The translations under genes and the position numbers were made by a program. Positions 2,114 through 58,300 of a DNA stretch of 64,000 nt are shown piece after piece. A model generated the notes under the pieces. That model worked only from the letters and a program-made list of their open reading frames with translations, made no database searches and had not been told where the DNA came from. The DNA lies in contig CM097888.1 in the NCBI GenBank assembly GCA_044892525.1, positions 37,262,001 to 37,326,000 on the forward strand, read 5' to 3'. How positions within the stretch are numbered: position 1 is the stretch's first letter; every line of letters begins with the position of its first letter. Source of the stretch: Schmidtea polychroa (Eukaryota).

Positions 2114-2632
2114 TTAAATGAATTTTTCGATGAGCAGGTTCGACGGAAGAGGCGTCGCACTCGGCACATAGATAGGCGGAACGCTGGATGTCTGCATGGC
2201 GCTAGACAGAACCGGTTAATGGAGGGGCGGCAGTTGAGGCCCATGTCCTGCGCAACTGGTCAAGGCTCGTGATCCTACATCGATTTGATAGTGGATCGGG
2301 AACACGTTGGTCCTGTACTGAATCGGATATTCGCGAACTCGCTTTAAAATTTCGGCTTCAGTGTACACTTTGTGCAGTGCCTCTGATTGGGCTTTGATAG
2401 TTAGCCGCTGGCACCAAATTTCTTCCAGAAGACTGTCACGGCAGTGCTCCAATCTTAAGATCTTTGTTCGTTCTTCCTTCATTTGTGGCGGGGAGAACTG
2501 CGTGCCTTCATACGTATCGATACGTTTTTTGAGAGCCCCGATATAAGCGTGTAACTTCCTGATGTCTTCGTTCTTGTCAGCAGAAGAAAAGCAGGGTTGG
2601 AGTTCTTTAATGGAAGTGCTGGGTACTGACAT
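2114..2632 (-). pseudogene. Family F copy 1 (short variant; internal stop at 2216-2218)
   Basis: N-terminal ~115 aa align closely with ORF 38970-39731 (PCFSSADKN, YIGALKKRI, FSPPQMKEERTKILRLEHCRDSLLEE, QRLTIKAQSEALHKVY). Splice acceptor TTTTCCTTGTAG 2 nt before the ATG. Same frame continues past the stop (PVLS...) to TAA at 2114. Confidence 0.85.
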
Positions 2633-4165
2633 GCCTACAAGGAAAAGGAAAATTCTCGATCATCGTCGTTAATGGTCGTTCAGAAATACTAATGAAACCA
2701 AATAACACCACAAAATTACATAGGTGGTTTCGATTGTACCCGAAAAAGGATTATGAGTATCTTAGTAAGTCGCCATATCGTCATCACGTAAGGTCACTAT
2801 CACTACGGTCGGTTTCCTGCAAAACATTCCCGTACTCCAACAATCGGTCTGGAATTGAACTTTTATTCGGGATTATTGAGGGAAAATTACGACTCCTCAT
2901 CTGGTAGCACCCGTACCCAAAGTACCAGCGTTCGTTAAAAATGTTTCATCGACTATTCATCTTCCCTTTTGCTTTATCATCTCAATCATACTCATCCAGA
3001 AATCGTACTGAGGGTAACGAGATATATCATCATTCAGTAGTATAATATAACTTCCCCTTGACGACGGAGTAAAGGAGGGGTTGGGTGGGATTTGATCTTG
3101 ACAAATCGACAAAATCGACAACAAATAATAATTAATTTAATTATTTAGAATTTAAATTTCGTAATACTGTGGTGACTTTTCGTTGCGACACGAAAAAATG
3201 CTTATATTGCTATATTGTTGATTATATTGATATTCAGATTCACTGCAAAGTTCTTAAGTACGGTTAGTAATACTGACACGATACAGTTAGTGTTATTGGC
3301 GATTGAGTACATTCTATGGATCGTTAATTGTGTGACAGAAATACTAACAGCAACAGTGAAAACTAGGTCAATAATGGAATTTCTAATGTTTAGAATAAAT
3401 CTAGTTACAATAATAGGGATGATAGTTGCTAGGCCGGTGTTAACAATGATAATAAATGAAATAGTCCAATTAATAAGGAGGTTAACCGTTAATAATTAAA
3501 ATTGGAATAACCGAACCGTAATATTTCTAACAATGCTAACGCCAATGATTAGGTTAAAATCGATTATTATGACAACAAGCAGAATATCAACAATTAATAC
3601 ATGTAGTGGTATGGGTCATCCATGATTCCCACTCGGGACAGGCAGTTATCTACCGGCATTCATTTTCGTCTTTTTGTTACGGTAATGACTGAGGTCGTTG
3701 TTGCACTATAACGCTGACGAATTCTTGTCTGCAGTTGTCAATTTTCTCTTTATCTGACTGAATGTGTTTGCATGCCTCATATCCGGACAAGATAATGATT
3801 TCTATTTTTTAATTATTTTTGTTTTTCTTTTATTATTTATTTCGGTTTTTTCTAGTGGGTTTTCTTTGGTTTATTGTTATGTTGCTTAGATTCGGTTGGG
3901 GTTACCTTACTTATTTATTTTATTTTTATGTGGTTTCCTCTTTCATACCGGATTCAACTCCATCGAAATTTATCCCTTTGAAATTTAGCCGAACAGATTG
4001 ATACTACCTACATATCTCCGATAGGGAGTCGGAGCATTTGTGAGCCGGGTAATACATGATGTTGGTTACTTAGAGTAAATATTTATGAACTCAGTCTAAT
4101 CCCATAAGCTTCCTTCGCGATTTACGATTTGTCTCCAATATGTGTACCCAAGACGTCGTATCATG

Positions 4166-4308
4166 TTGGTGACGCGCACGCAGGTTGGAACTTACAAGCA
4201 GGTAAGCCCTAGTGTTAGGACTACTCGCTGTAAGATTCACGATACGGGTTCCTGATTGCCGATGGAATGACTTACATATCTTTCACTTTACTACATCCCT
4301 GATCCAAG
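4166..4308 (-). other. Conserved non-coding block downstream of family F (copy 2)
   Basis: Minus strand CTTGGATCAGG...GTAAGTC...GGCAATCAGGAACCCG...GAGTAGTCCTAA...GGGCTTACCTGC...TTCCAACC...CACCAA matches 17058-17191 and 39985-40131. Confidence 0.85.
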
Positions 4309-4560
4309 GAGATGAGGTTCATGCTAAGCTTATCTACCATGAGAGTTGGATCATATCCGAGTTACACCTTCGTAATTGAGCGTACTGATGAACGAGGAAA
4401 ATGATAAGAACCCAAATTTTTTTATTATATCCGTATTACAACACATACTAAATTCACGAAATCAAGAAGTTAAATCCATTCAGTTATCTAAAAAGTTCGG
4501 TTCCATTTATCAATATAGACAGACAAACCACAAGATTGTTATTAGGGTACTATCGTGACT

Positions 4561-5336
4561 TTAGTTGACCTCCATATCTCCTTCGGTCAGCAGGGCATCT
4601 ATATCCACCTGCAGCCAACGATCTTCCTGGTGAGTCGATGCTACGGATGAGATGATTCGAAAGGTATTGAGTCGTGCGATTGATTGAGGATTGGTATTTG
4701 TCTTGGCAATATCCGAGTGGGCAGCGAACAATGAAGTCTCTAGTGCTTCCATCTCCTTTCGTCGTTTTAAAGTTCTCTCAACCCTCGATGGGCCTTCCAC
4801 TTCTTTGGATTCGGACTCGTTGACTTCCCGGAATGGCTTGGAGGAACGGTAGGAAACGATTAACGGAAAGTAGATTCGGAAGTGACGCCATCATTTTTTA
4901 CCCCTTTCAGAATGGGTTCTACGATAGGGGAAAGTTCCGGACCATGCCCTGCACAGCTTGATGACGCTGGGGCATTCAACTCGTCCGCTTGATGATGTTA
5001 GGGGAAAACGTTAAGTCCGTCCTTGATCGGGAATTCCCTGACTCTTCTCAGTATCTCTGATTCGGAGTATACGTGATGCAGGGTATCTGACTGGGCCTTG
5101 ATGGTCAATCGCTGGCAACGGCTTTCCTCCAGGAGACTGTCTCGGGAGTGCACCAGTCGCAAAACGTTCATTTTTTTTTCCTTCATTTGTTGCGGGGAGA
5201 ACCACGTATGTTCTAAAATTTCAATTCGCTTTTTGAAAGCCCCGATGTAGTCTTGTAGTTTTCGGTTGTCCGCGTTCTTGTCGGCACACGAAAAACAAGG
5301 TTTCGGGCTGTGTGGAGGCAAATTAGGCTCGGACAT
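4561..5336 (-). pseudogene. Family F copy 2 (full length; 2 stops and a frameshift)
   Basis: MSEPNLPPHSPKPCFSCADKN...; ORFs 4998-5360 and 4561-4800 match the N- and C-terminal parts of ORF 38970, ending LQVDIDALLTEGD. Confidence 0.9.
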
Positions 5337-8300
5337 GACAGAAAATGTTTTAAAACACAATTTATCAATCGTAAATGAAAACTTTCCTCAATACTACCAG
5401 ACTCATTCGTCGTTCACCTTGATTAGTCAGTCACGAAATCAATATCATCCTAACTCAAATATCAATATTCATATCACGTGCGTACAAAAACGAGGTCTGT
5501 CGTACATATTGAATTCATTACGGGTAGGATTCGATCAAATTATTAATAGGTTCATTTTTTAATGGTTCAATCTTAAATATTTAAATAATATCGAGGGGAG
5601 ATTTTAAGCCAAAATACTTCATGCTAACGATACTAGAATACTGGGTCTAAAATAATTTCTAGCAAACTTTGAGATTCGATGAAATATAGTATTCTAAAAT
5701 TTAAATAAAAATGTTACTAGTAAGAATATTAGCCCTATGTTTAAATTAAGTTTCGGGTTTGTGATACAGAAATTAGTATTATGTATTTCGTCATTATTAT
5801 GGTAGTTTAGGTTTTCATATTTACTTAGTGGTTGAAATGTTTAATTAATTGACGTTTTGTTTATTCTTTCATGGCAATGTTATAAATAATGTCTAAGACT
5901 TGCAAATCCGTTGCCCCACATTTTAGGGTTATCGTGTTTACGTTGACGTTAACAGAATCTGTTTTAGTTCATCCAGTTGGTAGTTTTATGTGTATACGAT
6001 CGTGATTATTTGGAAAATATTTAGTGTATACAATTCAGGAATTGATTTAAATGATTTTCGGAATGTTTACATGCGATTTCTACTTCACGTCACAATATTG
6101 TCTTTAGCGTGATGAGAGAAACTCGATCCATTGAGGTTACGTTTATATGTGATAATATGTCCGGATGTGGTCTGCCGAAAAGTTGATGTTGACTATGCGT
6201 TTAAAAATTTAATGAATTAGCAATTCTAGAGCTTTCAAGTTTTAGTGAATTTTTATTATTGGTACATCTTAACGGAAAAGCCGTGGATAGATTTACGTGA
6301 AAATGAAGACACTGAAGCCTTGGGAGTACCGAAACGACGAAATATCGGATTTATCAGTGATGTTGCCGGAGTTACAAAAATTAATTTAGATGATTCCTGT
6401 GTAAACTTGTTGAAGTTTCCAGTAGTCTTCCTGTCTTATAAGATTTCCGGATCGCTTTTCCATAGTGGCTTTAGAAGTTCCTGAATAGTTTTCGCTCTAA
6501 GTTTTAGAAGTTTGCTATGAGAATTAATGAGAAAATTTTTTTAGTTCTTAAATTTATAAAATTTAACCTGTCGAAAATTTTTTAGAAGTTTAGGGAATAA
6601 GCCAAGTGTCCGCCTTATATAGAATTTTTCGTCCAATCAGGACTTAGTTAGGGTGTATTTTTAATATTTTTCTTATGTCTTGTGCTTTTAACAGTTTTTC
6701 TTAAACTATTTAATCGTTTTAATTTGATTAATTTATCAAGTACTTTATTTTAAATGTTTTTCCTTATTTTTGTTCATTTCTATTGGAGATTCTGTTTGTA
6801 TTTCGTTATTTTTACTTTTATCTTTGTTTTTATTTATGGTTTTATGATAAATTTTTATTTTCTTGTTTGCATTTTTATTGTATTTGTATTTTGTATTTTA
6901 CTTTACAGAATTATTTTCTTCAGCTTGTTCGTTATGGTTGTGTATTTTTGTGATTTAATTGCTACTCTTCATGTTTTTGATGCTCTGATTTTAATTATTT
7001 TTTTATTCTGTTATTTTCTCCTTTTTTATTATTTATTTTTCTCACACTTGACTGATCCACTCCCTTTTTATTATACAGGATTTATTTTTAACTAAGATAT
7101 TTTAATGACCTGTCAAGATGATTTATTATTTTATTATTAACTTTCGTAACTCCCAGCCCAACAATGAGAACCCGATAGCATTTTCAAACCACCAGCAAGT
7201 AGAATGAATCGATAAAGAGAGAAAGTTCACCCGTTGAGACAAATGATCGCGTGTGACATTAGCTAGCTACTTAAGCTGATTTTCATTCTCATTTGAAGTT
7301 GCTACAAATGCAGTTGGCCTTATCGAAATTTTGGCGATATAAATGACATCAGTGCGCTGAGTTAGCAGATTAGAGTTGACTACTATCTAGACAAGCCAGA
7401 TAGTTCACGTTATCGTTCCATGTTAAAATCTATATCACTAATCATCGATGAACCTAAGATTGACGTTGTCTATGAGTATTCGCCTAAAGATTGGCATAAA
7501 TTATTAGAATTACGGCTAGTCGAAGCCACTATACTCATTTTATGTATTGATAAGAATTAGACTCGAAAACCTTAATTGCGTAATCACAGAATTTCGATAA
7601 AAATTAATGGTGCGCCTTCATTAACGTTGGCTTTTGAATTAGATTCCAAAAATAATTTTTGTGTGCGAAAAAATTTAAGTGAATAGAAGATAAAGTTCGA
7701 TTTCATTTTTTTTATAAAACCCATTCGTAGAATATTTGAAAGTAATAGATTGAATAATTATTCCTTGAGTTACGTAATTTTAAAAAACATTAAGAACATT
7801 TAATTTTGTCATTGATTATGGTTTGGAATATGGGAACCCACGAGTAACAGAAACAATGTGCAATTATAATTAGAGTATTTTGGAATAATTAGGTATGATA
7901 AACCGACTTTGTAATTTCACTACTTCGTCACTACAGAATGCCCCAAGTAAGGCCACTACGATTGGCATTTTTATCTTCTATCAAGGATAACAATCTTAGG
8001 TTAAATAAATAAATTAATGTTAATAATTCAACTATCGTTTTTGTTGTTATCTTTAACGGGCCTACGAGCTAACGTCATCGGCACTGATTGGAAAGAGAAT
8101 GCGAGGGATTTCTATGACCTCCATAAGCTTTTTGCCGGAACCTCCCAATCAACCTTGTTATAATAAGCGTGGAACTCGAACTGTCGATACACAATGAACG
8201 GGACTTCTGTAAAATTTTCTTCTCGTAAACCTGTTGTATTGTAGAGACCCATGAGGGTGCACCTATGTATTGCTTGTTTATTTATGCTATAATATCTATT

Positions 8301-16034: not shown

Positions 16035-17324
16035 AGTCGAATGAATGCCGAATGTCAGTTATTTTTACCAGTATGATGGAGCTGTTTTTCTGAAGAGTTT
16101 TCCTTAGTTTTATAGAAAATGTCTGAACCAAATCTGCCAGTAACCGGCCTGAGACCGTAGTTCTCGTGCACGGATAAAAATTCGTTATTGAGGAAATCAG
16201 ACGATTATATCAGAACGTTGAAGAGAAAAATCGACACGTTGAAAGGCACCTGGTTCAATCCAGCGGCCATGAAAGAAGCCCAGACGAAAACTCTCAGGCT
16301 CGAGCACTGCCGTGACAGTTTGCTCGAGGAAAGCCGAAGTCAACGGCTTACGATTAAAGCTTAGTCGGCGGCTCTACACCGCATCTATTCCGACGCAGAG
16401 CTCAAGGCCAGAGTAGTTGAGTACCCCTCTGCATCATCGAACCGATCACGTGGGCCCATCCCACTCTTCACCTTGCCACTCTCATGGACCCACCGTAACA
16501 TCATCTGATCGTCCAGACATCTTAATGTCGGAAATTTACAAGTCCGCGACATCTAATATACCTCCAGAACTTACTTGGGTTCCCCGAGGAGACGTCCAAG
16601 CTGATCCCCCTACAGCAAAGAAGAAGCGGCTGACTCGCGCCGAGAAAACTAAAAAACGAAACGAAGAGCTCGCGGCAACTTCGGTTCAGTCGGTCATTCC
16701 GAAAGACGCGAATTCTGCAGTAAGAATCGTGCCAGCTACAATTTCTCAGACAGCTTCTGACCTGGCATTGGAAACCGACATCGCGGCTATGCTGTTGGAA
16801 GGAGATTGGTAACGGGCGGAGATCGTCAGCTAGCTTTATGTATCGGTACATTCGGCACTTCATGATAGTGGTAGACTCATTGAGCACAATAAAACTGTAT
16901 CTGTGTATAAAGTAGTCGTTTGCTGATTTTTGTAATTTCTACGCATGCTCGGCGAATAAATGTATTGCGAACGATGGGTTGTTGATTTATTAAATTTGCC
17001 TTATCTTATTGTTAAGACTCTGATGCGCTTGAGTAAACGGGAATGAGAAAAACCTCACTTGGACCAGACGGTTTGGGGAAAGCGTAAGTCCTTCTACGGC
17101 AGTCAGGAACCCGTACCGCGAATACTGGGGGAGTAGTCCTAACGCACGGGCTCATCTGCCCGCAGGTTCCGACCTCGGTGCACATCACCAAAATGGTTTA
17201 GTGTCATGTGTGCATCGGAGGGAATATCATTACCATCATCTTGGGTAACTAGGAAAATCGAGCTAGTCAAAATTCCACCAGTAGTCGTCCCATTCGTCAA
17301 CTATCCAACCCCAGGTACCCAACA
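16035..17324 (+). mobile_element. 5'-truncated giant LTR-like unit (3' end at 17324)
   Basis: Contains F copy 3, AATAAA near 16955 and conserved block 17058-17191; ends ACCCAACA at a distance from the block similar to the two TSD-bounded units. Left junction at the G11 run 16024-16034. Confidence 0.7.
16119..16812 (+). pseudogene. Family F copy 3 (stops and a frameshift)
   Basis: MSEPNLPVTGLRP*FSCTDKN...RLEHCRDSLLEESRSQRLTIKA*S...; C-terminus KKKRLTRAEKTKKR...RIVPA...ETDIAAMLLEGDW; acceptor TTTTATAG 3 nt before the ATG. Confidence 0.9.
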
Positions 17325-24819: not shown

Positions 24820-25084
24820 TTAAAAATATTCCAAATGTACATTATTTAAACACAGAATATCAAACAAAGAAAGGATTTTATATATAACTTTAATTTTTCA
24901 TTAATTAATTAATTAATAATGATTTGGTTTGCTTTAGTATTTTTAACGCGTGTGGTGTTTTTTATTTATTATTAGTTATGTAAAGTTGTTTGTTTTAATA
25001 ATATTCGTTTTAGCGTGTTTTTGAAAAACATATTTTAATTGCATTTATTGATTTTATGAATTTAGAAGTTCAAGACATCATAAC

Positions 25085-25095
25085 TGGCGACCACG
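25085..25095 (+). promoter_or_regulatory. Primer-binding site, probably tRNA-Arg
   Basis: TGGCGACCACG is complementary to a tRNA 3' end CGUGGUC-G-CCA, consistent with Arg(UCG) acceptor stems beginning GACCACG; shares its T with the LTR end. Confidence 0.65.
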
Positions 25096-25101
25096 ATTGA
25101 C

Positions 25102-27420
25102 ATGCTTTGGGACTCTGGAGCGTCAGTATCAGTTATGAGTGAAAAAAGTTGGACAAAGATCGGGAAACCGAGGTTAAAGCAGAGCACAATTTCTTTTTGT
25201 GGAGTATTTTCGACGGGAATGGAAAGACCGTTAGGAGAAATGACGATAGAAGCTGATTGGAATGGGAAAAAAAGAATTATTAATGTTATAGTTGTCAAAG
25301 ATATGCGTCCAGATTTCATTGGGGGTGTAGATACAATGGAGAGATTTGGTATTCGACTGGTAGAGGTGGACAATATTGAAGCGTCACAAGTAGGGAGGAC
25401 ATATGTGGACTCACAACGAGAAGAGAAAGCATTATTAATGCTTGGAGACAGGAAGAATGAACAGTTAGACATATTTCTACGGAAGTTCAAAGGTATTTTT
25501 ATGGCTTCAACCTTTGATCTCGGGTTTACGAAAGTTGTTCAACTTGAAATGAATATAGTAGGTGGGCCTGTAATGTTACAGCCAAGAAGACAACCAATGC
25601 ATTTAGAACAAAAGCTTGACGAACTTGTCACAAACTTATTAGAAGCGAGAGTTATTAGAAAATGCAAAAGTGCATGGAACGCACCACTAGTGATTGTGGC
25701 TAAGAAAGATGGATCAATAAGGATGTGTGTCGACTATATAGGGTTGAATGCGATCACGGAAAAGATATCTTTTCCAATGCCAGATACACGATTTCTACTG
25801 GATTGTCTGGCAGATTCAAAATATTTCACATCCATCGATCTAGGTCAAGCATATTATCAAGTTGGAATGGCGAAGGAAATTCAAGAGGTCACGGCTTTCA
25901 GTACAAGGGAAGGACAGTTTTGTTTTAACCGACTTCCTTTTGGACTAGCAACCGCCCCTGCGACGTTTCAAAGAATGAAGCACTCAATGTTGGATGGAAT
26001 ATTATTTAAGGGTGTTGTTGTCTACCTCGATGACATTCTTGTCTATGGAAAAGACAAAGAGGAACACAATAACAGATTAGAGGAAGTATTCAGAAGAATT
26101 CAACTAGCGGGGTTGAGAATTAACCCAGAAAAATGTAATCTGTATAAAGAAGAATTGACATTCCTAGGGCACACTGTAAGTGCAAGTGGGATAAAAACGA
26201 ACGACAAGAAGATTAAAGAGATTCAAGATGCAGAAATACCAGTATGCGCCAAACAATTAAGATCCTTTTTAGGTATGACCAATTACTATAGGAAGTTTAT
26301 AAAAAAAGAGAAAAAAGATGACTTGAATAAAAAAAAATTTCCTTTCAATTTGTATAACAACATAAAATTAGAAGATGGGTTTTTATTATTAGAGAAGAAT
26401 GGTAAAGATGTCATCCTGCTGCCGATAGACTAGTCAAATACGTTAGTTAAAGGAATACATACTGAAATGTGTCACATTGGAGTAAAGAAATTAATTAGCT
26501 ATATGAGCAACATATTTTTTTGGCCAAACATGCAAGAAACTATACAAAACTGTTTGATAGTATGTGAGATATGCTACAGAAGGAAGATAGTGCAGGAGAA
26601 GACAAAGGAACGATTGTTGCCGATAATAAGTTCAGAATTTTTAGAACAGTTGGTCATTGATATAGCACACATGAAGAATGGTGGAGTGTACAAGTATATG
26701 CTAGTTATCATTGATCGTTTTAGCAAAATGGTCAGTCTGACCGCACTGGAGAGACAAGACGAGAGATCGATTTTCAAAGCCATATTGGAGAAGTGGATAT
26801 ACCGTTTCGGAAAACCGCGAAATTGTCTGTCAGACAGAGGGAAGAACTTCGATAGTGGTTTTATGAAAACAAATCTAGGAAGACTGGGTATTAGGCAACA
26901 GTTCAGTTCACCATATCAGCATCAATCTAACGGTTTAGTTGAGAGAACAATACGGACAGTCAGAGACTTGCTGGCAACATCATTAGCAGGTGGACTAGGA
27001 GAGCGAAATTGGGTGGAGTTACTTCCTCGAGTAGAATTTTGTATCAACGTGACACAACAGAGCGCGACGGGATTTTCTCCATTTGAAATTGTTTTTGGGA
27101 GGAAGATTAACCTTCATTCAACATTGCCTCAGACGACATTGGATACAGTTGAGATACATAGATTGGTAAGAGAGAACAGTGAGAAAGCAGCTAAACGAAT
27201 GAAAGAGATGGAAACAGAGAAGAGAACGAATCGATGTTTCACGATGGGGGAGAAAGTATTAGTTCGGAAAGAACCACAAAATCGCGACAAAGATGGACTA
27301 CAGTATGAAGGTCCGTTTGTCATATCAAAGTTTTTGTCAGAACACCAGGTGGAATTGAGTGACGGGACGACAAAGAAACTCAGACGAATTGAGTGGCTTA
27401 AGAGATGGGCAGTTCCTTAA
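25102..27420 (+). pseudogene. pol: pol: protease (N-truncated), RT, [RNase H missing], integrase; one in-frame stop at 26431
   Basis: LWDSGA; KKDGSIRMCVDY; LPFGL; YLDD; FLGH; LRSFLGMTNYYRKFI; integrase H-H...C-C (IHTEMCHIG, CEIC) and DIAH / SDRG / VERTI. ORFs 25102 and 26467 are in the same frame. Confidence 0.95.
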
Positions 27421-27703
27421 AGAAGGGGAGAGTTATGTAAAGTTTTTTGTTTTAATAATATTCGTTTTAGCGTGTTTTTGAAAAACATATTTTAATTGCA
27501 TTTATTGATTTTATGAATTTAGAAGTTGAAGACATCATAACTTTATTAAATTCATTATTTTCATTTTATTGCATATGTTCAATATGTTGGAGAAACTTTT
27601 AAAATTAAAAAATAATCGTTTTGCTAATCCATTCATAGAAATACAACCTTCAATAATATGTTTAAGATAATTTACACCCTTTTGACGAGAATGACATACA
27701 ATT

Positions 27704-33900: not shown

Positions 33901-36900
33901 TCGATAAAGATGTCAACTAAATCTCTCTCGAATTCGAAGAATAGTTCTACAAAAGCCATTAATGAGGATAAAAGTTATGAAAATAGAAGTCCATCTGAAT
34001 TAGAAAGTGGAGATCAGTTAAATTTGTTAACAGTGCCCCAACTTGTTCGTCGAGATGCGTCAGCTTCTTTTGGAGATTTAAGTTCTTTAGACGAATATAA
34101 TATCAATGAAATCAAGTCAAAAATAATGCAAAACAATGAGTTCGCATCAGAAATCACCATTAAAAACCATACTAGGAGTGCTGACCTCAGTGGGAAAAAT
34201 GTTTCCAACACAAACAATTTTGATTTGCTGCCCAGATCAGAATCTTCGTGTAACTAAATCAGAAGAAATTGCTTTTCTATTTTCATGAATATTTTTTTGC
34301 CTTTCTTGATTTTGTACATTAAAATTGTATTAAGTTTATGGTATTTTTAAGTACAATAAAATTTACCAGCTATTAAAACAAAATTTTCAGAAATGAAGCA
34401 GTGATTTGCTTTACCCTTACAAGTTGGAATTTTTCTCCTAGCAAAGGTGCCGTAGAAATACAAACAATAAATCAATATCATATCAAAAATAAGAAAATAT
34501 GTTACGAAGCCTTTTACTAACGGGTGAGTTTAGGTTTTCTATTAGTCTCAAATAGTAGATTATAAACTTCATTTTTAATTACTAAATCTTTAGAAGTTAT
34601 TGTTTGAGTAAGAAGTGTCATGAGTAACGGATGTATTAGGTCATTTTGAAAGTAATGTAGTTTTGTAAAGGGTCTATTTTAATTCTTCAGAAATATGGTT
34701 AATGATAAAGTATACGAATTACTTTAAGATTTAAAACCTAACATTTTCTTTGGAAATGAAGTCACACAAAGGACATATTGTAAAGAAAATTAAAATAAAG
34801 AAACATCGAGATAAGCCTCACAGACTTATAAAATCTTTTGAATAAAAATTTAAATAATGAACATTTGGAAACAAAAAAGACAGATAAACGGTGCACCGCG
34901 AACCCATTTGAATACGTGTCCATTAAAGTGCACGAGATGTCACTTACTTTAGACGAGTGTTCTCCGACGGAATACAATACCAATGTTAAGCATTCAACAG
35001 TATTGCGCGGTTGATAAAAGCTGTGTCCTTAGTTGCGCTGGAAACAGCACGAGAGGGTAACTCCCTCCATTGAATTTATCATGAACAAATATTTGTCGAC
35101 GTCAAGTGCCTAAAAAACAAAAAACACCATTTTCCTGTATTTTATTTACTCTAAATGTAATACTATGACATCTGTCTGTACTTTGTAATCTGTACTCTCA
35201 GTACACACTCATTCGTACACACTTGAAATGATTGACCATAATATTAATAAATATTTTTCAACTCTAACCTAGTCCCCACTCCTTCACAAATTCCTAGCTA
35301 CGCCACTGAGCAAATGATGTTTTATTTGACATAGTGGCCTGTGGCCCATGGCTATGTTCTATATTACGCAAATGATACGCATGGTTTCAGTTTCAGTAAT
35401 TATGGTTAGTAAATACAACAGTTTTTAATTCCATCATTAAAAAAACTCAAAACTTTATTTAGCTTATTTTTGAATATTGATACCGATGTTGATCTAACTA
35501 CTTGTTGATATTCGTTCAATTTATTCTGATGGAGTTCAGATGCTTGAACTTTAAACTGATCGTAGTGTTGCGGTAAAGTTTAGAGTGGAAAAAACTGGAT
35601 CAAATAGAGAAGCGAACCTCGAAAAATAAATGAAATAAAATAAAAAAATAAAATTACCTCAAATCCCAGTAGTAAATAAGGAGAAACAATAAAATACCCG
35701 TAAAAAAAATAAGAATAGGTAACAAATAAATAAAACCCTAAGATTACGAGATAAATCAAGGAGAAACAATTTAAAAACACACCATGAATAAAATAGAAAT
35801 AGTATAAGCAAAAAAGGTGAGAAAATAAACGAGAAATTAAAGCAATAAATAAAAATAAAACTACTTTTAGGACTAATTAAAACAAAAAATTATATTGTTA
35901 TAAAATAGCTATAAACCAGCAGGAAAAATAGGAGAAAAATAGTAAAAATAAGAAAATAAATAAAATAATAATAAGAAATAAGTTAGTTATTAAAAAATCT
36001 AATATAGTATAATAAAAACATAGAAATACCAATAAATAACGAAATTACAAGCTAGTCGCGTCCTGATTGGACGGAAAATAGTATATAAGCAATGGAAAAT
36101 ATCTGTAGAGTACCATTTAACCGCTATACTCTACAGCAACCAATTTTCGGATATTACCTTAGAAGACACTCTACCAACGTTACGAACTTGCGAAAAACTT
36201 TATTACAGCGAACTAGTTCTAGAATTCAAATTCAAACTCTAGGAAGAAATCCATAGTAAATTTAGCGACAAACTTATTCAGGAGAAATTTTAGTTTTCAA
36301 CCAATTTGATCCAGTTTTGAAACCCAAGGTATGTTGAGTCGTTTATGATTCAATTTAGTAAATTTTTGAATGGTTTAATTTTGTATGATTCGATTTTTGT
36401 AAATATAATGATAACTTTCAGAAAATAAATTTATTTAAAAGAAAATAGCTTTCTTCATGGTGCCGGCGACTGTACCATTTGGTAACTTCAAGTATGATGC
36501 GAATGAGAGGAAATAGCCACGAGGGATTTTCATGATATGCATCCAGAAGATGTTGAAAGGACATTGGGTTCTCAGAGAATACGATACTGGGAGAAGAGAG
36601 GCCCGCCAATGCCTGATTACGCGAGTGATTTAATGGAGAGAGACATCATACTTGGAGCCCAAATGATAGGGTCGCCGGGTAAATTATATTTATTCATTAT
36701 TTCGTAAACATATTTTGATCATTATGAATTATATGCAAATTATCATTTTATTGAATGCGAAGGAGTTGATTGGTCCCTCATGACGGTGCAAGAATGGCGG
36801 CAGCAATGAATGCCTTCTTGGGTGTGTCATGAGGGGTGATGAGACTCTGTAGATTGAGAAGTCGAATTTCCTTCACCGAACGCGATTGTTCGTAGAATAC

Positions 36901-39900
36901 TCCATTGTTATATTTGGTCGCATCAAAATTTCCAATAGCTGCGGAGACGATTTAGAATTCGAAAAAGAGACAATTCGTATTTGAGACTCATGTTTACGTT
37001 AGTGCTGATTAGGGAAAATCTACATAGATAGAGGAATACTTTCTTGATCATCAGCTTGTCGATCAGAGTGATTTGGAATAGGACCTTGTCGATCACAACG
37101 CACGAATAAATCCAATGAATTTCTGCAATATACTGCCTTTTGAAACGTCATCCGATTTAGATCGCCAGAGCATTAGCGCCAAAATCCATTTACGATGTAC
37201 TTTTAGTCTACAATATTGACTTTCGAGTGGCTGATAAGCACCGTCTTCTGAAAATTAAAGTAAATAACCAATGAGAAATTATCAGAAATCTTACGATAGA
37301 GATGAGAGAAATTACTGACAGAATTATCGGTTAAGCTTGTATTGACTGGAGGAATCACTGTGAGGGTTATCTGCTAATTGACAAATGAATTGCAGTCAGA
37401 TTATAACCAACATAATTTGACGATCGACGAAACCAGATAGAGTTGATAACCGGTTAACTTCCAAAATGATTTGTTTAAGCGGCGCGGGGGTAGACGTTGT
37501 CTTGAGTTGGCCGTTTGATAAGCGAATTAGATTATGATTCCCAGCTCATTTCACCATTTACCGAATTGCCACACGCGATCTAAGGCAGATGCTCATACAT
37601 CTACACCTAACCGCGAAATATAACATTATCTATAATCTAAAAAAAAAATCAATAAATATATATTATAGGAACACACAAACTTACCTGTGTGTAGAAATTT
37701 AATGCCGCGAAATTTATCAATATTATAAATGCTGACTAACAGTAATATTTAAGAACTTGAATAATGATCTCATAATTATATAAAATCAAAATTCAAGTCC
37801 TAAAAATTACTTCAATGCAAAAACTTACCTTTAAACGATTTTTGGAAAATTGAATAAATGAAATTAAGTTAACATTGTCATATAATTGGTGACTCACCTC
37901 AGGTGGTGTGCACACCAACTTATATTATAGACAATGTTAACTTTCGCGGTTAGGTGTAGTATCAATTCACATCGACCGTGTGGTACACGCATACCTTCGC
38001 ACACTCTCCTTACAGTAGGATACACCAAACACCACTGAGATGCATTTCCTATAATATAACAAAAAAATCAATAATCTTACATTATAGAAACATACATACT
38101 TACTTTGATTTCACGTTGATGTTCTCATTTATAGCTCAACGTATCTCAGTGGTGTTTGGTGTAGCAAAATACTTTAAATAGTAGAGTTTTCGACGACGTC
38201 ATAATTACATAATAGTCTACGATTCACGATTTCATGAGATAGTAGGATGGTGTGTATAAGTAGTAGGACAGATCGCTTTATTAACGACGTAATACGACAT
38301 CGGACTGTATAGCCTATTAGGGAGAACGACAACACATGCAGACACAAGCCTACACTAATCTAACCGAACATACCAACTCGCTTAAGGCAAATTGAATATA
38401 ACACAAGCACACGAGTGGGCGTCGTCATGACGACGAGTGCAGCGCGTTTTATAAAAATTCATAATTTAATTTCTAAAGCATTATTATATATTATATATAA
38501 TATATAATATAATATGATTCGAATATTTTTCAACCTGCATTGCAATTAACATCGTACAAATAATTATAAATTACACTAAATTTCGACCACCAGACATGCA
38601 CAACTCAACAAAACCACAATACTAGGCATTAGCGCTTTAATTGATTTTCGGAACATAACAACGTTAGCAGATAATCAAAAAGAGTAATAATGGAGAGGAC
38701 TGTCTAACCTGAAAGTAAATGTTGATTTTTAGGTCGAGTAAATTGAATTTAATATTTCCCCGTTTTCTTTTCTAAATTATTATTAGTAGATAATTTGATT
38801 TGAACGTTTAGTAACGGAATGAATGTGAAGTGCTGAGATATAGGAAAGAGTGGTTTGAGGGTTGCATAAAGTGGTATGATGAATGAGATCGTTAAGCCTG
38901 GGGGTTAAATCGTAAATGATACGCAAATGAGTGTTGCGACTGCTTCTGAATATATTAATAAATTTCTAGATGACTACACCATCCAACAAGGCTAAAGAAC
39001 TCGGCCCGTGTTTTTCTTGTGCCGACAAGAACGCGGATATCGCTCAACTTCACATATATATCGGGGCTCTAAAGAAGCGCATAAACCTTCATGAAGGCAC
39101 GTGGTTCTCGCCGCCACAAATGAAGGAGGAAAGGACTAAGATCCTCAGATTAGAGCACTGTAGAAACAGCCTGCTGGAAGAGAGCCGCTGTCAAAGGCTC
39201 ACAATAAAGGCACAGTCAGAAGCCCTCCATAAGGTCTATACGGAGGCAGAACTAGCCAAGCGAGTGCGCGAATTTCCCGTCGTGGATGGAACAAACGTGT
39301 TCCCTCTCCACCATCAGTCGTCTACATCGTCTACCACAAGTTGTCAAGGGCACGGCTCCCATCGGCCGCCCACCCCAGCCCCAGTACTGTCGGGATATTT
39401 ACCCATGAAAGGTGGCCTGTCTGACCCAATTCTGGCCCCAATTCTCGTGGCACCTTCTGTCACCACGGCGGTAGGAGAAAATCCGCCATCCCGCAAACGC
39501 AAGCATCCAACTAGGGCCGAGAAGAATAGAAAACGCCGGAATGCAATGAAGGCACGCGAAACGTCATTATCAGCGGCACACTTGAAAATTAAGGAAATAT
39601 CAACAACTCACTCAATCCCCTCAAAAGAAGTTTTCCGCATTGTTCCAGCCAGCGGTATCAAATTCATATCCGACTGCCGATTACCTGTTGACATCGACGA
39701 GATGATCGCCGAAGGGGACAACTTCGTCTAGACCGGATTCCTATTGAGCTCGATGTTTGCTTCGAGCCGTAAATGAACTTGAAGACTTTGTCGAATGTCG
39801 TATCCTACTGGTTCATATGCTGTTGATCTAATAATTGGGATGATGTATTGTTTTATTTTTGTTTCAGTGTCAATACATTTTTCTGTTTGGTTATTATTTT

Positions 39901-42718
39901 GTAAAGTCTTCAAATATTTGGTTTTGCGAATTAGAGTAAATGAATTAGGGCGGAAGAATGAAGGAATTAGGCCAACGGTCGTCCTTTGGACCAGGATCGA
40001 ACCGAGATTTATGTATGAATGAGGGTAAGTCCTTCTCAGGCACCATGGAACCCGAACCGAACAGGGGTTAGGAGTAGTCCTAAGGCAGGGCTCACCTGCT
40101 AACCTCTTCCGACCCGTGTGGGCAGCACCAACGTGGAACATCGTCACGGGCTCACGCGTGGGAATATTTGTATGATCATTAGGGATATGCAAGGGGAGTG
40201 TCTAAGCGGAACGATAAGGCTTCGTATGTCTGGAAATCGTACGTAACTAATTTTCTTCCCCACCATACACCAACAGTAGTTAAATCAACTTAAGTGTCAG
40301 TAATATTATATTTGAATATATAAAAAATTGAACCCGGATACCTGGGCATTAATAAACAAATTGCTTTATTTTCAAATGAAAAGTTAAAAAGAATCAGTTG
40401 GAGCATTGAACAAGTATATGATTTTATAAGGACATAAATATCTTCAGAGTAGTTCCTGTGTCGATAATTGTTCAGCATTTTTCCTAACACTTTCTACGTT
40501 GTTAATATTGATGAATTTTTTTTCAACTTGGTAATTAATAAAATAATTTTATATACACTTCTCTTATCTAAGAAAGCTTATAATTTAAGTTTATGTTCTT
40601 TATCAAGGTCGGTTCTAGATGTAGGCTACGTAATCTCAAACCCACATCCGCAACAGCAATGAGAATAACAACATATATGGCATGGGATTCAGTAAATAAT
40701 GAAAATTTAAATCTAGATCTAAAAAATGTTAGAGATAAAAGGTATTTTCCGTTCTCTGTTCGAAGAACTGACGAGACTGTTTTTCCAGTATTTACATTGT
40801 TGAGGTTACGCAAATTGGTGTAATTTTCACAAAAAATGATTAAAAATGATTAAAAAATTTTAAATATTATGTAAAAATTTAAAAATTAATATAATTCGCG
40901 AGTTGGGGGTTGGGGGTAGATTTAGAAAAGCTGGTCGGAAATACGTGAAAAAATATAGGTGGCCCTAAATCCCCTTTTTACATCTCATATTGTCGTTTTA
41001 TAATGTACTATCTCATAATTATAAAAAAGACTGCTGCCTATATAGTAAACGACCGAAGGATAATTGACTCTATTTAATTGTTCTACAGAATGATTTAGAT
41101 ATAAGTTATTATAATTAATAATACCAGTTATGAAGCTGAAACTAATGACAGACAGACAAATACAGAGTCCCTACTATCAAATATCAAACTCATCAATGGC
41201 CCTATATATAGGATTGACCAGAAAATATACAACTGTGGAAGGCATAAGTGCGGTTTAACAATAAAATTGCCCATGTTGCAATATTTAAAATAATAATGGT
41301 TTTCAGAGTGGTTCCCAAACGCCAAGGAATTTAGTTACAACTGATGTTTGTACATAAAATTGTTCTTGATAAATTATATGACTTTTACAATTACGATGTT
41401 AAATATATATAATTAGAGGCTATAACATTTCACTGTTCACTCATAATCCCAAAATTTATTTCATTACAGGTCGTAAAAAATATTTTTTAAGACAATTACT
41501 AATTATTTAATATCAACAAAAAAATTTCAAACATTCATCATTCATAAAAACTTTAAACATTTGATTTTTTAATTTAAAAACTAGAATAAAACTTTTACCC
41601 TATATAAATAATAATATAATTTAAAAATAATTTCAAAATAAAAATTTTGTTTTTTAATCCTTTGAACCCTAAACTCCGATAAAATGACCTGATTTAGTGA
41701 CGCATATACCATAATGGCGGGTTACTGGCCTCAATGTATATCCAGATATGTATATGTTAATACTTTTGACTCATTAACACCGTCATCGCGAGATGATAGG
41801 AAGGGCAGAACTTGTTTTAGCATGAACTCCGTGCGAAAGTGTTCCTAGGTTGAGATTGTTGTGTGCAGAGGTGCTAGTAGTTTTATATACATTTTGAAAA
41901 ATTTGCGTGTGAATCTGAAAACTGTTATGATGTGTATCATTCCAAAGTTGAATTCTGGAGATAAATTAATATTTTATTATAAGAACTTTTTTTTCACTTG
42001 AAAAGGGCAGTGCCGAAAATTTGTGAATATCAAAAACATCGACTTATTTATTGATTCATAGTTTTCAAATTTTTAAAAAATTTTTTTTTTTATAAATAGA
42101 TGTTTTTACCTATTATAATTAATTAAAAACTCATTATTCTTATATTAATGTAATTATTATTTTTATAATCAATAACTTTTTTTACTACAGGAAGTTGTGT
42201 AAAATTATTATAAACTAGAAAAAGGTTTCCTGGTTGGAAATTGATTTTTGGTTAAAATTGCAGTTTTAGTCAAATATTATTTTTTGGTCAAAAATTACTT
42301 ATGAGCTCAGGCTTAGCGTACTTGTATAATGAACGCCTCAGGGTTCAAAAGATTGAATTTTCTCCTCACACAACATATATAAAAATTTAATAAAAGCAGT
42401 TTTTAAAATATTATTACTGTCATTAATAAATAATTTTTTTTACGAATTAATTCTCACTGACTTCCAGCTACGACAGGCAGCTTGCGAATTATATATCTGT
42501 TGAAATATGCCAGGTAACCTATAGTAAGAGTAAACAATGATTATGATATTTAGATTATTTGTTCAATGATCTTTTATCCAATGAGCTTTTGTTTCAATAT
42601 TGCTCTTATTCGTGTTACCAGTAAGCCATCAATTATTTATCAACGCTATTCACAATTTCATCTTCCATCAATTCGTTTCATTCAAGGAATAAATATTACA
42701 TCGGAAATCAAGCAAACC
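33901..42718 (+). CDS. Multi-exon host gene of unknown function (exons about 33901-34249, 40608-40741, 42468-42513, 42554-42718; ends undetermined)
   Basis: The last three exons have canonical GT-AG sites and join in one open frame (VGSRCRLRNLK...VRDK|SYDRQLANYISVEICQ|IICSMIFY...EIKQT) with a 40-bp intron. Linkage of the 115-aa ORF at 33910 is inferred and needs an extra small exon. Confidence 0.5.
37604..37956. mobile_element. Tc1/mariner-type MITE (353 bp) inside the solo unit
   Basis: TIR CACCTAACCGCGAAA / TTTCGCGGTTAGGTG extending imperfectly to ~35 bp; TA on both sides. Confidence 0.85.
38023..38161. mobile_element. Tc1/mariner-type MITE (139 bp) inside the solo unit
   Basis: Perfect inverted repeat CACCAAACACCACTGAGAT / ATCTCAGTGGTGTTTGGTG; TA on both sides. 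Confidence 0.85.
38970..39731 (+). CDS. Family F copy 4, intact 253-aa protein of unknown function (coiled coil, Pro/Ser linker, basic NLS-like tract, acidic C-terminal motif)
   Basis: Uninterrupted ORF; three homologues in the window; acceptor TTTCTAG abuts the ATG; RKRKHPTRAEKNRKRR; ends LPVDIDEMIAEGDNFV. Confidence 0.9.
   Translation: MTTPSNKAKELGPCFSCADKNADIAQLHIYIGALKKRINLHEGTWFSPPQMKEERTKILRLEHCRNSLLEESRCQRLTIKAQSEALHKVYTEAELAKRVREFPVVDGTNVFPLHHQSSTSSTTSCQGHGSHRPPTPAPVLSGYLPMKGGLSDPILAPILVAPSVTTAVGENPPSRKRKHPTRAEKNRKRRNAMKARETSLSAAHLKIKEISTTHSIPSKEVFRIVPASGIKFISDCRLPVDIDEMIAEGDNFV
39985..40131 (+). other. Conserved non-coding block downstream of family F (copy 4)
   Basis: TTTGGACCAGG...GTAAGTCCTTCT...GGAACCCG...GGAGTAGTCCTAA...GGGCTCACCTGC...TTCCGACC...CACCAA. 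Confidence 0.85.
41658..42352 (+). mobile_element. Internally deleted piggyBac-like element
   Basis: TIRs TCCTTTGAACCCT / AGGGTTCAAAAGA; TTAA on the left, TTGA on the right; C-terminal Cys-rich remnant FACESENCYDVYHSK. Confidence 0.7.
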
Positions 42719-55377: not shown

Positions 55378-58300
55378 ATGCGTGTCTTTATTACATATGA
55401 AAATGATCGGGTTTCGATGGACATACCATTTGGAGAAACAGTTAGAAAAATCAAAGAATTAATAATCAAGAGAATGTCTATTCCACAAAACACCAGTCAC
55501 TTAGGTAATGAAAATCAAATGAGGAAAGTTCTGGTTTTGAATTGTTTTGGAGCAGAATTACCCGATCATTGGATACTGTCTGATTTGAGCATTACTCCTG
55601 GATCTACTTTGAAAGCTTACATGAAAGATGAAATGGATCCAATTTTGTATTTCAAAATTGGCTACAATTCAAACACTATTCCAGTTTTGGAAAAGATGAA
55701 ATTACAAGATTTATCTGTATCAGATCTCAGATCATTAGCATCCAAGTAATCTTTTATTATTTCTAATTATTTATTGTAATTTATCATATAAAATTATTCT
55801 TAAAATAATTTTCCAATAATAATTATTATATATGAAATTTTATATGGCTAATAGTTATTTTCTGGTTATGTTTGAAAACCATATGTAATAATTATTTCAA
55901 TAAAATTTTATTTAAATAATTATGTAAAAATTTCCTGTAATTTGTCAACCTTAGAAAACTTCTCTGTTTTTATGTCACTAATAATTTTTCATTGTTTCGA
56001 TTTTTCTATTATTCATTCTAATACAATCCACATCTGATAAAATGGACTAAAATTTTTGTTATCATGAAATTATATTAATCTGTATTTAATTTTCTTTCAT
56101 ATTCCTGTAGTTTTAAAAATACATTCCTGCCTTTTAATGAATTTTAGGTGTAGATACAAAATATAAGAATATCATCCAAGTACAGGAATACTTCGAACAG
56201 GTTAATCGGTTCTGGAATTTAGCCGTACTATTTGAAACCGGACTATTCGAGGCATTCTGGTGCTAATAACTCTACGGCTTAGTACCCCTATTAAGAAATT
56301 TAAAAATCGTTATTATAATCTAGTAAACAAAAAATATTTTGTTATGTATTTTTATTTTTCTGATATTCAAGAGCAAAACAAGCATATTTAACACAGTTGT
56401 ACATTTAAATATATATTTATTGAAATTTATAAGCCGGCAATACCAATTCATTGCAACTAAATCAAAAAAAAGAATTTATTTCATTTTAAAAATATTAAAA
56501 AAAGCTGATGAAAAACAAGTAAATAAAATTAAATAAACACAACAATTTAATTTAAAAAAGATCAACAAAAGCAATTCACTTAAATTCTAATGTTTAGATT
56601 CATTTTTTATTGTTTAAAAATTTCAATAACGATGTCTGAACTTTTTTTTGTCGTTTCTCCTCATACATTTCTTTGTAGCAATGAATTGCGTTGGCTATTG
56701 TTCGACGAATTGTAATGCGGCGTTCTATATTAGAATCAACTTCCATTATATGATCCGAAACTTTTTCGATCATTTCAATGATTTCTTTGAGCTGTTCAGA
56801 AGTTAAATCTTTAGCAGGGGTTCAACAATTTCATTGTGAAGTTTAATAACGCTAAGCTTCTATTCTAAAGTGAGCCATTTGCGTTTTTTGGTTGTGGAGT
56901 CACTTTTACACTTTGTTCTGCCACTCATTTTATTTTTTAAATTAAAATCTAAATATATAAAAGTCAACATACTCTACGATTAAAAATATAAAACCAACAA
57001 CTTTGATCTATTATCGCACGATCGGGAATGTATCCGTAGTGAATTTTTTTACGGTTTATTTATTTAATTTTTTATTAAAACTACAAACCAGAAATTAAAC
57101 GTAACAAAACAAATTATTAAACACGTGCCGTATGATTTTATAATAACGAATAAATTCTAAAAAATTAATTTAAAAAAACTTTTAAATTTCGAAAATTTTA
57201 TTTAGTCATTTTAAAAACAATCATATTTTGAAAATTTCAAAACCGTACTATAGAGAAACCGTACTGATCGAAACCGTACTTTCACCTAAATACCCAGAAG
57301 ATCTAAAAAAATAACTAAAATTTAGAGCTAATAATCAATTATTTCAATATAATATAAAAAATGTAAATTACAAATTTTTTGAAAATCTTAATTTATAAAA
57401 AAAAATTCATTTTGCTTGTAATGACATTTTTAATTTTTTTAATACTAAATATATTTCTTTTTATTATTGATGTATTTCAAATCCTGCTTTTGAATGTCAT
57501 GAGTGCAATACCACATACATAGGAATGACTATCCCTCATTAATGCGCTCTCAAATCGACCGAGGAAATTGATAAAGTGAGCATAATAAGGAATAAAATAG
57601 AGGTGGTACATGAAAAACATTTGTCTAAAATGATGTTATGTAAGCTTGTAAAAAATCGTTAAACTTAATAAAAATTATTTAGCGATCTTAAAAAAAATTT
57701 TTTAATCAAATATATTTTTTAAAAATTTATGAATTTTTTGGCTTGTGAATTTAAAAATTTTATTTATTTTATTATTATTTTTATTTATCAAATTATTTTA
57801 TTTATTATATTTTATCATGAATCCCTTAACTCATAATATGGACACCCGAAATAAAATTTTTACTAGTGAACCCTTTCAATGCTCCTATGGACACCGTTTG
57901 CTTAAGATCAAAAATTTTCATTTAATTAACACGAACTTTATACCATTTAGTGTATTGACCATAATTCCTAAAAATGGAATGCAAATGACTAATTATATTC
58001 ATAAAGTCGTTTTTGAAAATTATTTAATGATTATTATTTAAAAAAAAGCTTGATCATAAATTGGTCACACTCAGCTGAACACCAACGCCCCAAAAGAACA
58101 CCATAACAACATCAAGTAATTAATTACTTTTCTGTAGCTATTTTTAGGAATCCATACAAAAATTTTAATTTAATTACGAATGGCATTATTAGCTATACAA
58201 ATTTAATTGATTTATTTTCACAACAGAGAATAAAACACTTTATATTTTAGTTACTTTACAAATAATATTATTGTTTTACTAAGTGAAATGGTAAATTTCT

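Follow-up and report, generated by a model that had tools for sequence, protein, structure and literature searches.

The 64,000-nucleotide stretch of Schmidtea polychroa DNA analyzed here (the window; contig CM097888.1, positions 37,262,001 to 37,326,000, forward strand) contains a solo long terminal repeat (LTR) of a Burro-type giant Gypsy element, and within this LTR lies an open reading frame (ORF), which we call F. Our data establish F as a real, selected protein-coding gene within the LTR, which represents a new protein family and whose function we infer. Judged from intron losses recorded in the genome, F is most likely produced from a spliced LTR transcript. By analogy with known retroelement regulators, we see an even chance that F is a dimeric RNA-binding regulator of the Rev/CERV kind, which would let intron-retaining genomic RNA escape splicing and exit the nucleus. 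The LTR is laid out as follows, in nucleotides (nt) and amino acids (aa).

35566..40275, plus strand: solo LTR of a Burro-type giant Gypsy element, 4,710 bp, TG...CA, with a 4-bp target site duplication GTAG; each LTR of a full-length element shares 70-75% identity with it.
36060..36087, plus strand: likely LTR promoter, a CCAAT box (GTCCTGATTGGACG) and a TATA box, with a putative start ~30 nt downstream; CCAAT is invariant in 7/7 aligned LTR types.
36329..38969, plus strand: intron upstream of F, GTATG...TTTCTAG, 2,641 nt; exactly lost in two independent insertions, with the acceptor abutting the ATG in 29/30 group-1 copies.
36424..36435, plus strand: AATAAA(TTTATT), putative poly(A) signal of the element, within the intron; AATAAA is found here in 7/7 LTR types.
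36463..36678, plus strand: long-range RNA stem, two ~35-nt arms around a variable loop, within the intron; candidate response element.
38970..39731, plus strand: ORF F, 253 aa, with a coiled-coil domain (12-117), a disordered linker, a basic tract and helix (173-213) and an acidic tail.
40025..40165, plus strand: second splice donor GTAAG, then a pair of covarying stem-loops that may form a packaging signal or response element.

Selection on F is evident from the comparison of genomic copies. The sequence-only reading of this window had counted 9 differing codons, 8 of them synonymous, over 17 codons of two F copies (1 and 4), and our recount gave the same figures. From 40 intact copies (240-262 aa with the tail motif) we obtained 31 distinct proteins, 27 of the young group and 2 per older group. 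Their median ratio of nonsynonymous to synonymous divergence (dN/dS), a test suggested with that reading, was 0.09 (233 of 465 pairs, dS 0.2-2.5); this value, pulled down somewhat by the picking of intact copies, is well below 1 and points to strong purifying selection. Split by region, the ratio came to 0.03 in the N-domain (217 pairs), 0.09 in the basic helix (219), 0.13 in the C-terminus (254) and 0.24 in the linker (322), and a codon model gave an omega of 0.128. Divergence at codon positions 1, 2 and 3 between the window copy and a young subfamily was 0.10, 0.03 and 0.40, respectively, so that F is conserved well beyond what chance would give. Moreover, the other five frames carry 3-17 stops in each of 10 copies tested, and the F frame alone is open. 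Because synonymous sites are near saturation between subfamilies, selection on the F protein is beyond doubt.

The LTR sequences also record how F is probably reached by splicing. The CCAAT and TATA boxes lie ~500-530 nt into the LTR in 7 LTR types and are present upstream of F in both older subfamilies; most of the 1.6 kb preceding F is unalignable. In three young LTR types the intron measures 2,117-2,183 nt. The acceptor YAG abuts the ATG (0 nt) in 29 of 30 young (group-1) copies; in group 2 it lies 2 nt upstream (16 of 21 copies) and in group 3 it lies 9-13 nt upstream (17 of 19), counts that omit copies without an intact ATG (4/25 and 6/25 in groups 2 and 3). Since the acceptor phase shifts between subfamilies, the upstream exon would be non-coding, and for the same reason F was rejected as the 3′ exon of a longer in-frame protein.

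The sole exception among young copies, at C1:70,561,075, has the donor at LTR position 781 fused exactly to the ATG. Genome-wide, this donor-to-ATG junction pattern gave three matches, all of them true: this insertion and the two LTRs of one element (C3:35.75-35.77 Mb). That element is bounded by a CTTA target duplication, and its body aligns collinearly with an intact relative (97.7% over 21.3 kb). A third insertion lacks a 103-nt GT-AG piece that starts at the same donor; its three matches come from two LTRs plus a duplicate contig sharing the flank, and 52 intact donors are present in its subfamily. These patterns were exact-match patterns for some of the subfamilies, and a third match of the second-subfamily donor pattern was discarded as a chance match. 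The simplest reading of the intron-loss sequences is that spliced genomic RNA was reverse-transcribed, which would fix the sense of transcription and the splice leading to F. Because the intron was lost exactly up to the ATG of F in two independent insertions, F most likely comes from a spliced LTR transcript. The three insertions with an LTR-spliced form are all single copies, and the data suggest that intron-less LTRs do not spread.

All three LTR deletions take out the conserved intronic AATAAA, which is probably the poly(A) signal of the element; as such, it would place F within a very long U5. A signal behind F was rejected as the conserved one, being AATAAA in one LTR type, AATACA in the window and unconserved across 13 copies. 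The string AATAAATTTATT at 36424-36435 is a perfect palindrome and hence provides a poly(A)-type signal on both strands. Contigs of four presumed-RNA runs were also compared with a young copy; one run spans F and the accessory ORFs, 0 of 13 listed joints are GT-AG, and because diverged copies are drawn to the conserved parts and the runs are RNA by presumption, we count this comparison neither way.

Two covarying RNA structures occupy intron positions and are candidate targets of F. For the stem in the LTR intron, both arms pair in 7/7 LTR types, with compensatory changes at 10 of 32 pairs and 90.5% of cells paired versus 31-47% when slid. The second donor, GTAAG, located ~300 nt behind the stop codon of F, is near-invariant, and the stem-loops following it show compensatory changes at 17 of 30 pairs in 34 copies (picked from 41 non-redundant copies of 100 matches), with 95% of cells paired versus 29-53% when slid; both structures were derived from the same alignments as were tested, which favors them over the slid controls. 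No Rfam family was found at either structure. The single window copy of the downstream element folds no better than its shuffles (z -1.7 and -0.2), and covariation is the one line of support for it. Within this element, a near-invariant CT(C/T)ACCTG at 40090-40098 reads as a consensus minus-strand splice donor and resembles the 5′ end of U1 snRNA; possible roles would be in an antisense transcript or in masking the nearby donor. A diverged downstream element also occurs at L047:2624-2813, where the F profile finds no F homolog upstream, and possibly belongs to another LTR family.

The layout of the F protein is in accordance with an oligomerizing, nucleic acid-binding regulator. AlphaFold2 predicts helices at residues 15-41, 48-89, 92-101 and 182-213 and disorder in the remainder (mean pLDDT 62, pTM 0.31). 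The N-domain is predicted as an in-register homodimer (score 0.58 versus 0.04 for the best control, contact agreement at least 93%, pLDDT at least 76); in eukaryotic tests, 17 of 29 true pairs scored this high, against 0 of 30 single chains, but only 1 of 7 pairs lacking an older solved relative did so. The prediction supports self-association of F via its coiled coil, as the sequence-only reading had supposed from a heptad-like pattern. The basic tract and acidic tail described there are also borne out: 11 K/R lie among residues 173-195 (pI 12) and continue into the predicted helix 182-213, and the tail (residues 233-253, pI 4.1) has 5-7 acidic residues per last 20 in 10/10 copies, with an I-x-x-hydrophobic-hydrophobic core (DIDEMI, DIDALL, DIAAML).

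Searches for known families returned nothing for F itself. Pfam holds no family for F, and the PDB gave no match by sequence, either to F or to the one relative that touches Pfam REV (below). A word-index protein search confined to near lengths found 0 matches among 493 candidates for F and 0 among 6,362 for the F alignment. Foldseek against PDB and viral structures gave no match at E 0.001, the best VIA-align hits (Z 9.2) were generic helical hairpins below the bar of ~13, and the best ESM Atlas values (0.87 and 0.84) fell below its bar. The proposal that F is encoded by the LTR and is neither a host gene nor a Gag subdomain therefore stands, and both of the latter identities were rejected for want of a Gag or cellular-family match in Pfam or PDB.

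Searched with an F profile, 1.84 billion representatives yielded 14 matches at E ≤0.001, all via an F-like segment. Unrelated host domains are present in 12 of the 14, and the 10 looked up are singleton UniParc records; we read them as mis-annotated gene models that absorbed an F-like exon. The host part of one relative matches a locus in this genome at 93% identity, which marks the source as a close sister species. The F-like family of that species, 31-48% identical to the copies in this genome, retains the coiled coil and the GTW, ESRxQR and IPxxH motifs. The PCFSC cysteine motif, which the sequence-only reading listed as shared, is conserved across the copies of this genome but absent in the sister-species relatives, and a zinc finger was accordingly rejected as a family hallmark. 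At the site where F reads RKRKxPTRAEKNxKRR, the relatives have RRRPNRNRRRRERRR or NPSKNRRRRERRR, and they carry an arginine-rich run, NRNRRRRERRR.

The carrier of F is an abundant giant element. A query with residues 1-117 of F returned 6,376 first-look candidates from this genome (781 Mb). Of these, 150 were scored; in 127 of the 150 an open frame reaches 249 aa or more with no internal stop (manual table count), and the scored matches are often paired on the same strand ~26 kb apart. Six of nine paired regions examined are full-length elements, and the other three are incomplete as fetched or segmental duplications. In the six elements F is present in both LTRs (4.1-4.3 kb long), at an offset of ~2,830-3,040 nt. 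These elements are ~30 kb long, with a primer-binding site that we take to be tRNA-Pro-like, the Gypsy order protease, reverse transcriptase, RNase H, integrase, and 4-bp target duplications where read. Three have an unbroken single ORF of 4,623-4,626 aa, in which Pfam recognizes gag, zinc knuckle, fusion glycoprotein, protease, reverse transcriptase, RNase H, integrase and ankyrin repeats (Ank_2, E 7e-18); the env-like fusion glycoprotein lies in frame between gag and pol (PF24664, E 3e-71, residues 1869-2208).

Outside the big ORF, Pfam finds a RING protein of 159 aa in the leader (L039:7759-8238) and a TRAF/MATH protein downstream of pol. The latter is one of five ORFs there (L041:4528-9181), of 119, 462 (TRAF), 345, 233 and 208 aa, the other four being without a Pfam match. 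By eye, an AG lies shortly upstream of the ATG in most of these accessory ORFs, and also of gag. BIR and BCL2-like domains are absent from the Pfam matches at E 0.001, no profile-profile search having been made. As far as the available text of the review on Burro/GYPSM1 goes (PMC6431247), the carrier matches the Burro elements of planarians: both are ~30 kb with multi-kb LTRs, encode a ~4,600-aa polyprotein with gag, an in-frame fusion glycoprotein, protease, reverse transcriptase, RNase H, integrase and ankyrin repeats, and bear TRAF/MATH and RING cargo. The difference is that TRAF forms a separate ORF downstream of pol in the present element. That text names no ORF, intron or RNA structure within the LTR.

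Two elements, C1:184,124,001-184,160,000 and C1:235,458,001-235,498,000, have bodies that are 97% identical but LTR modules that differ: the distal U3 is 91-100% identical (first 400 nt), F is 68% identical and the mid-LTR is unalignable. This pair is a natural LTR/leader swap.

According to the Rev/CERV-like reading, transcription would start behind the CCAAT/TATA box of the 5′ LTR, and default splicing would join a short non-coding exon to the ATG of F, removing the putative poly(A) signal together with the first RNA stem. With this default splice, F would be the early product. F would then dimerize via its predicted N-terminal coiled coil, and its predicted Arg/Lys helix would bind a structured element of unspliced RNA. 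Such RNA must survive, because RNA spliced in the LTR yields a shortened LTR; with splice sites in both LTR and leader, the element would have to protect and export it. The sequence-only reading left open whether F is a transactivator or an RNA regulator. The splicing in the LTR, the intron-loss copies, the two covarying structures and the Rev-like arginine motif of the relatives together shift the weight to an RNA regulator of the Rev/CERV kind and away from a Tas/Tat-like activator. More tentatively, we regard the Burro LTR as a possible self-contained and swappable module, with promoter, intron, response element and a convergent Rev-like protein forming an early/late switch, in which case the many solo LTRs of the genome may be sources of F in trans.

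Several points weigh against this reading. There is no conserved exposed leucine-rich export signal by one classical regular expression in 10 copies, and the only recurrent match (residues 31-40, 6/10 copies) lies inside the predicted dimer interface. Neither sequence nor fold links F to Rev, Rex, Rec or CERV in Pfam, PDB, Foldseek or VIA-align. One of the 14 relatives weakly touches Pfam REV (E 0.0013, 19.1 bits, below the cutoff of 22), and this match may reflect arginine content alone. The downstream RNA element, which is retained in the spliced, reverse-transcribed copy, may simply be a packaging signal, and the acidic hydrophobic tail suits an activation domain equally well. Both the transcription start and the poly(A) site are putative positions. 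Finally, exon and intron both end in AG, which gives a 2-nt microhomology at both junction sites; deletion by microhomology instead of splicing is unlikely, as both sites would have to be hit in two subfamilies. Judged by its sequence, F resembles a Rev-like protein in layout, and we do not assign it as a member.

Known systems offer partial parallels. HIV Rev is about half the size of F. Coding sequences in or next to the LTR that are reached by splicing are known from MMTV sag, HIV nef and foamy tas/bel, which lie in or before U3 and are read from the 3′ LTR. F is likewise coding sequence within an LTR and apparently reached by splicing; lying downstream of the putative promoter, it would be transcribed from the 5′ LTR and perhaps also from solo LTRs, unlike sag, nef and tas. 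In the available text on Rev, Rex, Rec, Rem and Rej (PMC5568270), the retroviral organization comprises an arginine-rich motif on a helix, coiled-coil oligomerization, an export signal, a spliced mRNA and a structured RNA target. F shares the motif, the coiled coil, the spliced mRNA and the structured RNA by prediction or from sequence, but it has no detectable homology to these proteins, no conserved leucine-rich export signal, and sits behind the LTR promoter of a Gypsy element rather than in a retrovirus. A parallel among Gypsy elements is CERV of Cer1, from C. elegans, described in the accessible part of PMC10309623 as a novel protein made from a spliced mRNA and needed for export of unspliced genomic RNA. 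Both are novel Gypsy-encoded proteins from spliced mRNA (for F, as read from DNA), and the leucine zipper, basic nuclear signal and predicted self-assembly of CERV have counterparts in the predicted coiled coil and basic tract of F; in sequence the two are unrelated.

The best-surviving rival, which we hold to be a serious but clearly lesser possibility, is that F transactivates the LTR promoter like foamy Tas, HTLV Tax or Tat/TAR: the coiled coil would dimerize, the basic tract would bind DNA or nascent RNA or be a nuclear signal, and the acidic tail would recruit coactivators. The composition of this tail, with its hydrophobic core in 10/10 copies, fits such a role, as do the probable early spliced position behind F's own promoter and the predicted dimer. 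So does the swapped pair on C1, in which promoter-proximal LTR, F and leader appear to move as a module, yet this recombinant still has the distal U3 from the other family. The region just behind the TATA box, where a TAR-like site would lie given the putative start, is poorly conserved, and the first conserved stem lies ~350 nt downstream. Arginine runs like that of the relatives are commoner in RNA-binding motifs, and F matches no DNA-binding family in Pfam. A bZIP identity in particular was rejected: the N-x7-R pattern is absent by eye, Pfam gives no bZIP at E 0.1, and the atlas bZIP cluster (0.81) lies below the bar.

Considerably less probable is that F acts on LTR RNA structures as an RNA chaperone or as a packaging, dimerization or poly(A)-choice factor, with no role in export. 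The downstream element does adjoin the primer-binding site and is kept in spliced RNA that was still packaged and reverse-transcribed, the putative poly(A) signal would have to be ignored in the 5′ LTR but recognized in the 3′ LTR, and the lack of an export signal by regular expression in 10 copies would be natural; Gag, however, already has a CCHC knuckle for packaging. We think it unlikely, and slightly more so, that F targets the host, for example by suppressing silencing or serving as an adaptor, and that its LTR location only secures early, high expression. Cysteine-rich viral silencing suppressors exist, and the conserved Cys/His in this genome's copies of F recall them. The element also carries RING, TRAF/MATH and ankyrin cargo, and within the accessible portions of the sources Burro1 is under PIWI control (PMC8532177) and is reported to protect stem cells via an IAP region, and one Burro element is reported to support regeneration (both cited in PMC13465017). 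Yet the cysteines are missing in the sister-species relatives, the very low dN/dS of the N-domain is unlike a host-conflict interface, and F contains no captured host domain. That F is untranslated, its open frame a by-product of LTR sequence or RNA-structure conservation, can hardly be credited given near-saturated synonymous sites with dN/dS of 0.03-0.13, a frame that alone is open, and protein homology that holds at 31-48% identity to the sister-species family.

The window contains three further copies of F, all broken.

2162..2632, minus strand: broken, truncated F copy 1.
4135..6689, minus strand: decayed older-subfamily LTR; carries F copy 2 (5336-4576, broken), the CCAAT box and the downstream RNA element.
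16119..17320, plus strand: end of a decayed third-subfamily LTR; carries F copy 3 (broken) and the downstream RNA element.

As first described from the letters, the four copies are related: tblastn with the intact ORF recovers the other three, copy 1 at 2632-2162 (67% over 159 aa), copy 2 at 5336-4902 (58%) and 4809-4576 (41%), and copy 3 at 16119-16427 (56%) and 16594-16806 (36%). Copy 4, the ORF F above, is the sole intact one; copies 2 and 3 have stops and frameshifts, and copy 1 has one stop and is truncated upstream of the basic tract and tail. The motifs said to be common to the copies are thus not all found in all four. The flanks, described as barely alignable, are not unrelated: copies 2, 3 and 4 share the element ~300 nt behind the stop (4162-4275, 17081-17195 and 40022-40131), and the CCAAT box is common to copies 2 (6632, minus strand) and 4 (36063).

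Other features of the window are separate from F. A hairpin (37746-37806, minus strand) scores 61.8 bits against Rfam mir-753, whose gathering threshold is 62, and its 3′ arm begins with UGAGAUCA, the bantam seed. The hairpin lies in an insert of this LTR copy (~37600-38100). A 61-nt direct repeat flanks the insert, and pieces related to it are also present away from LTRs (L024, L048); one possibility is a small mobile element that spreads a microRNA with the bantam seed. As a core LTR part the hairpin was rejected, since it is absent in 8/8 other LTRs tested, and our literature search found no paper joining miR-753 with planarians. A small Gypsy-type remnant at 24974-27542, with reverse transcriptase and integrase between 112-nt direct repeats, is unrelated to F. 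Exon-like ORFs at 55378-55749 and 63380-64000, with weak ubiquitin-like and ankyrin matches, probably belong to a host gene.

The Burro element family is known; the F protein, its intron and the RNA structures appear to be new, without certainty. The literature covered gave no description of a Burro LTR ORF, its intron or RNA structures, and Grohme et al. 2018 and Lee et al. 2026 (Dev Cell), which lie outside this coverage, may annotate the ORF. Natural intron-loss insertions offer a way to read retroelement splicing from DNA alone. Burro elements are abundant in planarian genomes, and for the export of unspliced RNA from such a large, multiply spliced element F is a knock-down-ready candidate with two candidate RNA targets. 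If the Rev-like reading is true, Gypsy elements would have invented this function a second time, independently of CERV, and in F by a gene that lies behind the LTR promoter.

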